This document shows positions 266-2,088 of a DNA stretch of 15,801 nucleotides, in pieces (positions within the stretch are counted from its first letter, which is position 1; every line of letters begins with the position of its first letter). The translations under genes were made by a program, and so were the position numbers. The stretch lies in contig JAWBTW010000017.1 in the NCBI GenBank assembly GCA_039000165.1, forward strand, positions 1 to 15,801, written 5' to 3'. Source of the stretch: Candidatus Aenigmatarchaeota archaeon. Its GTDB lineage: Archaea > Aenigmatarchaeota > Aenigmatarchaeia > CG10238-14 > SCSR01. Below the pieces are notes generated by a model. The model was not told the DNA's origin, ran no database searches, and saw only the letters and a list, made by a program, of their open reading frames with translations.

Positions 266-330
266 TACGCCTAATGCTTCTTATACGAACTTTTAAGCCT
301 GAAAAGGCAATTTTGGCTTTATTTTTGAGG

Positions 331-707
331 AAAATGCGCCAACTATTAGGCTAGATTTTGCCTTTTTTGATATTGTTTCAATTTTTGGAATCCAAGGAAA
401 ATTGATACAATACCGATTAAAAATATAAGTATCTTTACCTATCCAAGGTTCAAAATTATTTTTATGCCGTTGATATTGCAGTTGCGCAGAAATTAATGGA
501 AACGATGTTTTATTTTTAAATGCGCCACATATTTTAAATAGACTGTGCAATTTGTGAATTTTATGAAAAATAGAGAGAATTTATGCCATTTTCTTTAGTT
601 AAAAAGCAAATTTAAACTTTTTAAAATCAAATAAAGAGATTTAAAATCAAATTTGATTAAAGAAAGTGGAAATTACTTGTTTTTTGAAAAAAATAAAATG
701 CGCCAAT
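331..707 (+). repeat. Dispersed AAATGCGCCA boxes (3 copies; TGCGCCA cores at 335, 521, 699)
   Basis: aaaatgcgccaac (331-343), aaatgcgccac (518-528) and aaaatgcgccaat (695-707), spaced 186 and 178 bp apart. An inverted core GGCGCA lies at 919-924 and another TGCGCCAACT at 2103-2112. Confidence 0.7.
600..658 (+). repeat. 20-bp-period direct repeat TTTAAAATCAAAT with a terminal 14-bp palindrome
   Basis: Identical 13-mers at 620-632 and 640-652, with a degenerate copy near 600-612. AATCAAATTTGATT (645-658) is a perfect palindrome. Confidence 0.55.
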
Positions 708-760
708 AAACTAAAAATAATTGAGCTTTTTTAAGATAGAGAAAAAGTGAGACTTAAAGT

Positions 761-880
761 ATATACTAAAAAATATTTGTTTAAGAAAATATTATTTAGT
801 ATATGTAATAAATTCAATGTTTTTATTTAAATATTTTATAAAAAATATAATTTTTTATATTTTTTGTAATTATTATTTTA
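761..880. other. Extreme AT-rich tract (candidate DNA-unwinding element)
   Basis: Only 8 G/C in 120 bp by manual count, and 820-865 is 46 bp of pure A/T. An 11-bp inverted repeat lies at 840-850/855-865. Confidence 0.5.
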
Positions 881-913
881 ACTCTATGATAGAAAGTGAG
901 AATTCATAGAAAA

Positions 914-932
914 AAGGAGGCGCACCCTCCTT
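914..932. repeat. GC-rich inverted repeat/hairpin AAGGAGG-cgcac-CCTCCTT
   Basis: Perfect 7-bp stem with a 5-nt loop. It contains the reverse complement of the TGCGCC box and stands out in A/T-rich surroundings. Confidence 0.6.
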
Positions 933-967
933 CAAAATAAAAAGTGAAGTTACTAGCCCTTATTTAA

Positions 968-985
968 AAAGTGAAAGTTTATAAG
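968..985 (+). promoter_or_regulatory. Putative BRE-TATA promoter for the 1008..1760 gene (probably leaderless)
   Basis: Purine-rich AAAGTGAAAG directly followed by TTTATAA (978-984), ending about 24 bp before the GTG start. No Shine-Dalgarno visible. Confidence 0.45.
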
Positions 986-1007
986 GAAGTAAATCATAAT
1001 ATTAATA

Positions 1008-1760
1008 GTGAGTTTAATTGATCGTATATTGCAGTTTTTTAGAAAAAAGCGCAGTCCTGAAGCGCTTCAAAGCGCTTCAAACGATTTAAAAGCGCTTCAA
1101 AGCGATGAAAAAGCGCTTCAAGAGCGCTTCAAAGCGCTTCAAATCGCTACTCCAGAGACTAAAATTCAAACAGAAACACCCCAACCAGAAACCCTGGAGC
1201 TTGAAAAAGAATCTCTTCAATTGGGTATAGCTGCCGGATATACTGGAAGAGCTCTAAAAGAAATCGAGGCTTCATTGAATAGAATAGAGACCCAAATGGT
1301 TTCAAAGGACTGGTTGTTATCCAAGTTCGAAATCCCTGTATTAACTATTAATGAGATAAAAGAAATTTTAAAACAGCATGATGAAAATATGTCCAGAAAA
1401 TTTGAAATAATTCAAAATTCTATAGAATCTCTTAAAAAAACAGCGGAAATTTCACCAGAACCTATTAAAACTGAAATAATGACTCAAATAGAAAAAATAG
1501 AATCTCAATTACCTTTAACACCAAAAATGGAAGAAGTTTTAGCTATTATAAGGGAGCATAAAGAAATAAGCTATAAGGATCTTGCGCAAAAACTAGGATG
1601 GAAAGATACCTCAGGGCTAAGGGGTTTACTTTCAAATATGGTTAAGAGAACTGATAAGATAGAAAGGTTTGAAAAAGATGGCCAAGGATGGGTAAGATAT
1701 CGCTTTGAAGCGCTTCAAAGCGGTTCTAATCCTTTTCCATCAAATTTAAAGGTTCAGTAA
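1008..1760 (+). CDS. Hypothetical coiled-coil protein with a C-terminal winged helix-turn-helix and an N-terminal amphipathic helix
   Basis: 250 aa with a GTG start. The C-terminal LTPKMEEVLAIIREHKEISYKDLAQKLGWKDTSGLRGLLSNMVKRTDKIERFEKDGQGWVRY fits a wHTH pattern. The central region is E/K/I/L-rich and helical. The N-terminus is MSLIDRILQFFRKK. Confidence 0.85.
   Translation: MSLIDRILQFFRKKRSPEALQSASNDLKALQSDEKALQERFKALQIATPETKIQTETPQPETLELEKESLQLGIAAGYTGRALKEIEASLNRIETQMVSKDWLLSKFEIPVLTINEIKEILKQHDENMSRKFEIIQNSIESLKKTAEISPEPIKTEIMTQIEKIESQLPLTPKMEEVLAIIREHKEISYKDLAQKLGWKDTSGLRGLLSNMVKRTDKIERFEKDGQGWVRYRFEALQSGSNPFPSNLKVQ
1048..1150 (+). repeat. Intragenic ~10-bp-period array of AGCGCTTCAA
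   Basis: Exact copies start at 1061, 1071, 1091, 1112, 1123 and 1133. Degenerate units lie at 1048, 1081, 1101 and 1143. TGAAGCGCTTCA (1058-1069) is palindromic. Confidence 0.95.
1701..1722. repeat. Perfect 22-bp palindrome CGCTTTGAAGCGCTTCAAAGCG
   Basis: The sequence equals its own reverse complement. It contains the same AGCGCTTCAA unit (1709-1718) as the 5' array of the same gene. Confidence 0.95.
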
Positions 1761-1812: not shown

Positions 1813-2088
1813 TTATTTTTTGTCCGAGTTCAATTTATCCATTACAGTAAGGAATCTAAATATTCCATTTATGTCAGTTCCAGGTTTAAGTCTTACCATC
1901 TGAACATTAAAAGGTTCAAATTTCTGAATCTCTACGAACATCGTTAAATGAGTATTTATAAGTCTAGAAACAGTCTTGTGGTGTAGCTTTGTTCTTCTGG
2001 CTATTTCTCTTATCCAAAGCCACCCTTCTTCTGAGTGTTTTAAACATTTAACTATCTTTATAAGATTTTGAATCTTGTCTTTTCTCAT
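1813..2088 (-). CDS. Small helix-turn-helix DNA-binding protein
   Basis: 91 aa. IVKCLKHSEEGWLWIREIARRTKLHHKTVSRLIN is a classic HTH pattern. Confidence 0.85.
   Translation of the reverse strand: MRKDKIQNLIKIVKCLKHSEEGWLWIREIARRTKLHHKTVSRLINTHLTMFVEIQKFEPFNVQMVRLKPGTDINGIFRFLTVMDKLNSDKK

Follow-up and report, generated by a model that had tools for sequence, protein, structure and literature searches.

The 15.8-kb contig JAWBTW010000017.1 (C17) of a Candidatus Aenigmatarchaeota archaeon, analysed here over its whole length of 15,801 nucleotides (nt) and referred to below as the window, carries an open reading frame (ORF; gene X, 1008..1760, plus strand) whose coding sequence contains an array of short, helically phased DNA repeats and, towards its 3′ end, a further site built from the same repeat. 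The assembly to which the contig belongs (G000) comprises 783,037 bases in 25 contigs with a G+C content (GC) of 33%. Its archaeal markers, as found by a Pfam scan, include family-B DNA polymerase, aEF-1alpha, aEF-2, archaeal S-adenosylmethionine (SAM) synthetase and deoxyhypusine synthase, and homologues of gene X are labelled Aenigmarchaeota or Aenigmatarchaeota in public records. Gene X encodes 250 amino acids (aa) from a GTG codon at 1008, which is likely to be the start codon because the peptide preceding the array, SLIDRILQFFRKKR, is conserved in the family and the start column is shared in the alignment. Gene Y (1813..2088, minus strand), encoding a small winged helix-turn-helix (wHTH) protein of 91 aa, is its convergent neighbour, and a long AT-rich non-coding region (266..1007) lies upstream.

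The X protein comprises an N-terminal amphipathic basic helix, a repeat-encoded linker, a conserved helical core, a C-terminal wHTH domain and a repeat-encoded tail. An AlphaFold2 (AF2) model, built with 92 sequences, predicts a helix at residues 3–13, low confidence at 14–61, long helices at 62–96, 114–148 and 153–167, a confident wHTH at 172–231 (predicted local distance difference test score, pLDDT, >90) and a disordered tail with low confidence at 238–250, in keeping with an earlier sequence-only reading of the window, which had placed both repeat zones outside the folded domains. The N-terminal helix (LIDRILQFFRK, codons 1014..1046, plus strand) follows a family-wide pattern, MG-[ILF]-[FL]-x-x-[IL]-x-x-[IL]-F-x-K-K, and its hydrophobic moment is 0.67, compared with a mean of 0.38 for shuffled sequences. 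The most conserved part of the protein is the core S69–W102 (codons 1212..1313, plus strand; SLQLGIAAGYTGR..IE.SL.RIE.Q..SKDW), in which G73, A75, A76, G77, Y78, R92, E94 and W102 are invariant among the 92 sequences; it matches nothing in Pfam or the PDB and belongs to no fold or family known from them. The matches obtained with Foldseek against the PDB and with the VIA wide search, in which the core (62–167) was not run as a separate model, are restricted to the wHTH.

The wHTH domain (1521..1700, plus strand; recognition helix at residues 202–214, nt 1611–1649) resembles the MarR, MecI/BlaI and ArsR/SmtB folds in the top Foldseek matches. VIA-align with residues 169–236 gave Z scores of 10.3, 10.2 and 10.1, the best being for 2nyx_A (10.3); the MarR–operator complex 5h3r_A was matched at Z 10.1 with a root-mean-square deviation of 2.3 over 65 residues, and SelB is also among the VIA fold matches. 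Nothing in Pfam reached its cut-off (only DUF3489 appeared, at 19 bits against a cut-off of 29.5), nothing in NCBIfam came near its cut-offs, a PDB profile search gave MarR at E 0.011, and the ESM Atlas offered weak leads (≤0.85) to MarR/TrmB-type archaeal proteins. The family counts 154 homologues at E ≤ 0.01 in a 90%-identity collection, and 120 representative clusters at E ≤ 0.001 (82 at E ≤ 1e-30) among 1.84 billion proteins, where no distant named relatives were found. Among 201 sampled genomes of the phylum, 42 carry X, namely 33/41 of its own family and 5/9, 1/12, 1/1 and 1/1 of other families of the same order, and X was not found in the remaining families searched. Longer forms of X (approximately 340 aa), with an extra C-terminal domain ending ...GIKV.ILS...L.EL, occur at L009, L011, L121, L123, L124, L126, L127, L131–L133, L153 and L154.

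The 5′ intragenic array (1058..1148, plus strand) starts 50 nt into the ORF, past the conserved N-terminal helix, encodes residues 17–47 and ends with a trailing ATCGCT. Six exact copies of the unit AGCGCTTCAA start at 1061, 1071, 1091, 1112, 1123 and 1133, at spacings of 10, 20, 21, 11 and 10 nt, with degenerate units, each three mismatches from AGCGCTTCAA, in the gaps at 1081–1090 and 1101–1110. The array opens with the inverted pair TGAAGCGCTTCA (1058–1069), which occurs in the whole assembly at 1058 and 1706 only. The 3′ site (1701..1722) is a perfect 22-bp palindrome, CGCTTTGAAGCGCTTCAAAGCG, formed by two opposed units and encoding RFEALQS of the disordered tail; a seventh AGCGCTTCAA starts within it at 1709 and overlaps a reverse copy at 1705–1714. 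The exact copies with their spacing, the degenerate units and the palindrome with the seventh copy had been described in the sequence-only reading and are confirmed base for base, and the accompanying statement that no full copy lies elsewhere in the window extends to the entire 783,037-base assembly, in which 7/7 copies of the 10-mer fall within ORF 1008–1760. When one mismatch is allowed, AGCGCTTCAA has 9 matches against 0.98 expected, a number reached in 0/200 shuffles. Rfam and tRNA scans of the window and five loci found nothing at the X locus.

The array is not an assembly artefact, a concern that had also been raised, because it recurs in contigs that come from a second, independent study (record 18 of X5 over 529–1151 with one difference; record 26 of X6 over 966–1151 with none) and homologous loci carry arrays too. 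Contigs of four runs contain no insertion or deletion within 1058–1148. The same hot-spring samples also hold a second, related organism with its own version of the array (window 1007–1121; runs X1, X5, X6 and X10), whose records show 9–10 differences and loose ends such as AGCGCTTCAAAAGCGCTCGAAAGCGCTCAA.

The family was surveyed in 110 homologous loci, consisting of the first 30 genomic loci (L003–L032) and 80 metagenome loci (L115–L194). A search pattern located X in 96 of these, the 14 misses being excluded from all counts, and the 94 loci with at least 90 nt of 5′ zone, all of the Aenigmarchaeota order, were scored for an array, defined as at least three copies of a 7-mer within the 5′ zone. 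An intragenic array is present in 83/94; the metagenome loci partly duplicate the genome loci, and these 83 reduce to 75 unique arrays. The 5′ word recurs on the 3′ side in 57/83, in the ORF tail in 31 and solely within 120 nt after the stop codon in 26, and a mid-gene copy exists in 21/83. The flanks contain 29 unit copies in 179,804 nt, both strands counted. Zones derived from 8-mer counts in the first 30 genomic loci and measured from the conserved AAGY codon place the 5′ array between −230 and −60, in some lineages a pair between +157 and +200, and a single or paired copy between +475 and +505, the last position being steady irrespective of the unit. Excluding the TCAATCA class, which has a period of 12, 235 unit spacings were measured, of which 92 are 10–11 nt, 70 are 20–22 nt and 22 are 30–32 nt, making 184/235 helically phased. 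L003, L004 and L115 share the pattern 10/20/21/11/10 exactly, L006 and L116 have it with one unit more, and it persists between genes 68–94% identical.

The unit itself varies by lineage, for instance AGCGCTTCAA, TCAATCA, CGATACGAATC and TGAATCGA. Most lineages carry AGCGCTTCAA; CGATTCAAT is found in L013, TCAATCAATCAC in L015, L016, L018, L024 and L032, CGATACGAATC in L025–L027, GCTGAATCGA in L022 and TTACATCG in L028. Confinement to the X locus is also seen in G092, of another family, where 10/10 copies of CGATACGAA in a 481-kb contig lie at X; in G024 7/11 copies of a low-complexity word do. The sequence-only reading had asked whether homologues share a 5′ phased array and a 3′ palindrome. 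The array and the 3′ copy do recur; the palindrome does not, being particular to AGCGCTTCAA, whose core AAGCGCTT is self-complementary, and lineages with other units have direct 3′ copies. In orientation the 3′ copies are direct in 19 cases, inverted in 11 and of both kinds in 20.

Several observations indicate that the DNA and not the encoded peptide is conserved. AGCGCTTCAA is read in the window in three frames, as ALQ, SAS and ERFK, and the 75 unique arrays use three frames in 42 cases, two in 28 and one in 5. In the long ORFs of the assembly GCG accounts for 5.3% of alanine codons and CGC for 1.4% of arginine codons (CTT for 25.8% of leucine codons), and 37/40 ALQ tripeptides in 15 genes are encoded by GCGCTTCAA. 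Synonymous sites were compared with a unit mask taken from the window alone, codon identity being scored at aligned positions with the same residue inside and outside the units. Between L003 and L006 it was 24/24 inside and 75/131 outside (Fisher p = 6.7e-6), and the corresponding values were 17/17 and 63/104 for L007, 17/18 and 106/169 for L005, 13/16 and 60/115 for L008, and 27/27 and 160/197 for L004. Furthermore, the 3′ copy keeps its genomic place whether it is coding or not: it is in frame in the window, follows directly on a TAG in L014 as TTGAAGCGCTTCAA, contains the stop codon in L017, and is intergenic in L007 and in L020 (three copies). Because the units are read in two or three frames and use rare codons, the repeats are judged from these comparisons to be under selection at the DNA level and not conserved as peptide, as the sequence-only reading had argued from the multiple frames and the uncommon GC-rich codons. 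With frames, synonymous sites, codon choice and the non-coding 3′ copies in agreement, RFEALQS in the tail and the peptides of the linker appear to be by-products of DNA sites.

In 74 unique X sequences labelled by unit class, namely A (AGCGCT), A2, B (TCAATCA), C and C2, the columns with the highest mutual information with the class are residues 190, 210 and 201, all within the wHTH (K190, 1575–1577; T201, 1608–1610; N210, 1635–1637; plus strand), so that the unit co-varies with residues of the wHTH; covariation of the motif with the recognition helix had been asked about in the sequence-only reading. Residue 201 is E or Q in 18/18 class B sequences and E in 2/45 of class A. Residue 210 is N in 34/45 of class A, 4/4 of A2 and 2/18 of B, K in 3/3 of C and R in 4/4 of C2, while residue 214 is R in 45/45 of class A, 4/4 of A2 and 16/18 of B, I in 3/3 of C and V or I in 4/4 of C2. 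Columns that rank next are scattered across the tail, the remainder of the wHTH and the helical core; columns 233 and 234 lie in the tail encoded by the 3′ site itself. On a quick tree of the X core the unit class requires 15 changes against a shuffled mean of 37.2, showing that the classes cluster, and the TCAATCA class requires 7, of which at least 2 are forced by well-supported branches.

On balance, the probable explanation of these findings is that the repeats are double-stranded DNA sites placed within the gene of their own reader and that X binds its own gene cooperatively. X, which carries a MarR-like winged helix, would be a helical protein and probably an oligomeric one, its core providing oligomerization. 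One wHTH would be bound per unit of approximately 10.5 bp, the units of the 5′ array lying on one face of the helix over approximately 90 bp, and the 3′ sites, approximately 650 bp away, together with the mid-gene sites of some lineages, would permit a looped nucleoprotein complex. Occupancy would block transcription through the gene and thereby provide feedback control of X synthesis. The complex may in addition mark a single place on the chromosome, because the address that the units form occurs at one place per genome and changes with its reader, and the N-terminal helix could tether this place to the membrane; the amphipathic and basic character of the helix suggests such contact, which is the least secure step of the scheme.

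Several points weigh against this explanation. Descent confounds the association between unit and residues: the unit classes cluster on the tree, whose resolution is poor (31/82 inner branches open). An array-less clade of X (8/85 unique sequences) retains the A-type helix N210/R214/T215. In 26/83 loci no 3′ copy was detected, and in 17 of the 83 a mid-gene copy is lacking as well. The arrays of genus g5 (G045 and G083) are short and partly microsatellite-like. Concerted evolution alone could keep repeat copies identical within a genome. The amphipathicity of the N-terminal helix is modestly unusual, 6.75% of shuffles being equal or above. Because of the confounding by descent and the unchanged helix of the array-less clade, we infer, and do not observe, that X is the binder. 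This clade (L175, L178, L179, L184, L185 and L191) is well supported and has the wing sequence GQRMVRI instead of GKGWVRY; it provides a natural control for array function.

Among the alternatives, it is unlikely that the arrays are genuine DNA sites read by another protein, such as Y, Orc1/Cdc6 or a chromatin protein, X being merely their host. Y is itself a wHTH protein (with no family above cut-off in Pfam or NCBIfam) and is tightly linked to X, phmmer finding it at 67 of the 80 loci with at least 700 nt downstream and in convergent orientation in 66, and the unchanged recognition helix of the array-less clade of X also fits a different reader. The 137 homologues of Y are 62–100% identical, a conservation much above that of X. 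The Y recognition helix, (K/E)LHHKTVSRLI, however, is constant across the unit classes, being identical in lineages with AGCGCTTCAA, TCAATCA, CGATTCAATC and TTACATCG; it cannot track the unit. Since the Y helix is invariant while the unit changes, and the columns that best track the unit sit in the wHTH of X, the sequence comparison makes X the better candidate reader. At two loci, L007 and L020, the 3′ unit also forms part of the coding sequence for the tail of Y, on the opposite strand (...AIKALQS and ...IEAL).

The region upstream of X carries words of its own. Its GC is 19.3% over 551–1007, versus at least 28.9% in ORF-free gaps of at least 500 nt elsewhere in the assembly, and the lowest-GC 500-nt windows of G000 lie upstream of X (window 401–1100), at rank 1–3 of 7,719. 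An ORF at 293–550 (minus strand) has no Pfam family match and may be spurious. Five A[AT]AGTGA[GA] words on the plus strand (starts 744, 893, 941, 968 and 1005) form the sole such cluster in G000, and phased AAAGTGAGAGTT words precede X. Family-wide, the 12-mer aaAGTGAGaGTT occurs upstream of X in 2–6 copies, strand-specifically and whatever the intragenic unit. AGTGAG is found 190 times on the plus and 9 times on the minus strand in 44,556 nt of upstream zones, and 29 and 49 times in the remaining 156,178 nt. The words are separated by 25–28 (46 cases), 36–37 (29), 47–48 (11), 57–59 (9), 67–69 (7) and 79–80 nt (6), which are half-integer helical turns, and the last stands 53 nt before the first ORF start codon in 21 loci. 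Loci with Y contain a mean of 2.57 copies, compared with 1.40 in loci without Y, and aaAGTGAGaGTT may be the site of this invariant neighbour. Elsewhere in G000 AAAGTGAG often stands 2–5 nt ahead of an ATG, like a ribosome-binding site (the 16S rRNA 3′ end was not located with a short universal word). The upstream copies of AAAGTGAG were considered as Shine–Dalgarno sites and rejected; their quantized spacing (27, 37, 48, 58 nt and further steps) and the lack of start codons behind them speak for DNA sites.

A second conserved upstream word is AAATGCGCCA/ATGCGCCA. AAATGCGCCA lies at 332–341, 518–527 and 696–705 (plus strand), 186 and 178 nt apart, these being 3/3 copies in the assembly, and an inverted TGCGCCA is found at 2103, close to where Y begins. 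Over the 329,695 nt of the 110 homologous loci ATGCGCCA was counted 80 times, compared with 7 times in the whole of G000. Between two AAAGTGA words lies a hairpin, AAGGAGG-cgcac-CCTCCTT (914–932), flanked by A-runs and T-runs, which could be a bidirectional terminator-like element.

This region invites the reading of the locus as an iteron-type replication origin, in which the AT-rich DNA unwinds and X is an initiator or an origin-specific accessory factor, as at ori-lambda. In 5/5 cases the 500-nt window poorest in GC across the assembly or contig is the one immediately upstream of X (G000; G045, C2 at approximately 359,900; G083, C1 at approximately 266,500; G024, C1 at approximately 207,000; G092, C1 at approximately 288,000), with rank 1 of 2,573 in G024 and rank 1 of 4,810 in G092, there tied with windows at three other places; G045 and G083 are of one genus and hence not independent. 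The arrays adjoin the AT-rich tract, an arrangement shared with ori-lambda (PMC5043065), and many X homologues lie within approximately 1 kb of a contig end. In G000 orc1/cdc6 (contig C3, 36,541–37,623) sits in a tight operon without a long AT-rich spacer beside it; an origin at that gene was considered and rejected, AT-rich spacer and AAAGTGAG clusters both being absent.

Strand bias nevertheless leans against an origin at X, GC skew being a weak guide to origins in archaea: the switch points of cumulative GC skew or gene orientation are 33–81 kb from X on the four long contigs of relatives (G045, 786 kb; G083, 791 kb; G092, 481 kb; G024, 258 kb). The V-shaped skew minimum of G092 falls at 206 kb, with X at 288 kb, and for G024 the minimum falls at 247 kb, with X at 208 kb; the orientation minima of G045 and G083 are at 401 and 300 kb, with X at 360 and 267 kb, respectively. 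The local skew peak at X arises because a block of minus-strand genes of 33–40 kb follows. X contains a single MarR-like wHTH, and the Pfam and fold searches revealed nothing Rep- or Orc-like in it. An iteron-type origin is accordingly rated rather unlikely, and the initiator–iteron role proposed from the sequence alone finds no support in the strand bias, orc1/cdc6 lying on another contig. The partition module proposed with it is likewise unsupported in the window. A Pfam scan of its 18 ORFs found no motor NTPase of the ParA, ParM or TubZ type (0/18), the neighbours of X are Y, a 78-aa protein and methionine aminopeptidase, and the array lies inside the ORF, not upstream over a promoter as in plasmid-type partition. 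Either role, origin or plasmid-type partition, is thus of low probability for the X locus.

It is improbable that the repeats have no nucleic acid function and are slippage products tolerated in a disordered linker and tail and homogenized by gene conversion, the peptides serving as motifs or filler. Such an origin would suit the predicted disorder or low confidence of the encoded parts, the microsatellite-like tracts (AAAC)n, (CGAA)n and (TCAA)n of some lineages, and the RFEALQ-like peptides that many homologues carry in their folded helical part as well. It does not suit 3′ copies that lie solely outside the ORF in 26 loci or overlap the stop codon in L017, their constant place 475–505 nt past the AAGY codon with any unit, phasing by 10–11 nt and not by codons, or a spacing pattern that is stable between genes just 68% identical.

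A role of the repeats in the mRNA, as an RNA-binding platform or through 5′/3′ pairing for translational control, is likewise improbable. All 5′ arrays are transcribed within the ORF, the AGCGCT unit is self-complementary, the arms 1058–1074 and 1701–1717 could pair (17 nt, 100% complementary), and some winged-helix folds bind RNA, SelB being among the fold matches. In several lineages, however, non-palindromic units are direct only, as with CGATACGA in L025 and L026, which have no reverse copies; the mixed 3′ orientation (19/11/20) fits neither a single RNA motif nor obligatory pairing, and a 10–11-nt period with multiples of 20–22 and 30–32 is that of B-DNA. That the array is a contingency locus switching X on and off by slipped-strand mispairing, as a 10-nt unit not divisible by 3 and the breaks of other runs' contigs at 1121/1122 and 1151 (inside or at the end of the array) might suggest, is scarcely credible, given exact units interrupted by degenerate ones, the shared spacing of L003, L004 and L115 (plus one unit in L006 and L116), no length change within 1058–1148 in the four runs and 83/83 arrayed genes open through the array.

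The proposed binding of X to its own gene has partial counterparts in known systems. The closest precedent for sites inside the gene of their reader is ori-lambda (PMC5043065), where the O sites lie inside the O gene, are read through as a linker and stand beside an A+T-rich tract, and X resembles this in having candidate sites within its own gene next to such a tract. It differs in being a single-copy chromosomal gene of an archaeal order and not a phage gene, in its units of approximately 10 bp at one-turn spacing instead of 19-bp inverted repeats, in the distribution of the sites over two or three clusters (5′, middle and 3′), in the position of the AT-rich tract upstream of the gene and in the lack of support from strand bias for an origin function.

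Plasmid centromeres such as parC–ParR (R1 and pSK41) and tubC–TubR (pBtoxis) are the closest precedents for phased arrays of 10–12-bp direct repeats; a small dimeric DNA-binding protein from a neighbouring gene binds them cooperatively, and TubR among these proteins has a winged helix. These arrays, which also serve in autoregulation, are situated ahead of the operon, over its promoter, and act together with a motor encoded alongside (ParM, ParA or TubZ). The X arrays share the helical phasing of repeats of this length (184/235 spacings), whereas no motor gene accompanies X in the window, and X is the larger protein, having a helical core and an amphipathic helix at its N-terminus. X falls into neither class, the ori-lambda/O type or the plasmid centromere type: a replication start at the locus (by strand bias), a motor gene in the window and an array overlapping a promoter were looked for and not found. 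A chromosomal parS site inside spo0J/parB provides an example of a chromosome-organizing protein with a site within its own gene, and Noc and RacA of Bacillus subtilis tether DNA to the membrane or the cell pole; in Noc an amphipathic membrane helix at the N-terminus is joined to sequence-specific DNA binding, whereas RacA unites a helix-turn-helix (HTH) with a coiled coil. The features that X has in common with ParB, Noc and RacA are limited to a generic HTH, with no shared sequence or fold, and those proteins have many chromosomal sites, whereas the X unit is found at one locus only. The autoregulated repressors of the MarR/ArsR type have the same wHTH fold as X (Z 10.1 to 5h3r_A), and by analogy with them self-regulation of X is likely; X differs in that its sites, 6–10 in number and phased, lie in coding sequence and in its additional, unmatched, conserved helical part of 100 residues.

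Beyond self-regulation, we tentatively consider, as possible rather than probable, that the X locus is an architectural element unique in the chromosome, either a centromere-like or membrane-attachment site or an Orc-independent origin, with the unit and the X wHTH co-evolving as a private pair. Such an element would have three layers: the lineage-specific intragenic arrays, the phased AAAGTGAGAGTT array, common to the whole family, in the most AT-rich DNA of the genome and the invariant Y. A literature search at the level of titles and abstracts found nothing on the X family or on intragenic arrays in DPANN archaea, and no description of such self-site arrays in an archaeal chromosomal gene. 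To our knowledge, little has been established about chromosome organization, segregation and replication in DPANN, and we know of no centromere-like element described there.

The X locus therefore offers a testable handle on these processes, with one site per genome and a candidate reader. The specificity of X has apparently changed several times in step with its site, which amounts to a natural swap experiment for protein–DNA recognition. The linker and tail of X also illustrate how a protein sequence can be shaped when strong selection acts on DNA sites, and annotation and evolutionary-rate analyses would misread the resulting peptides as conserved motifs.

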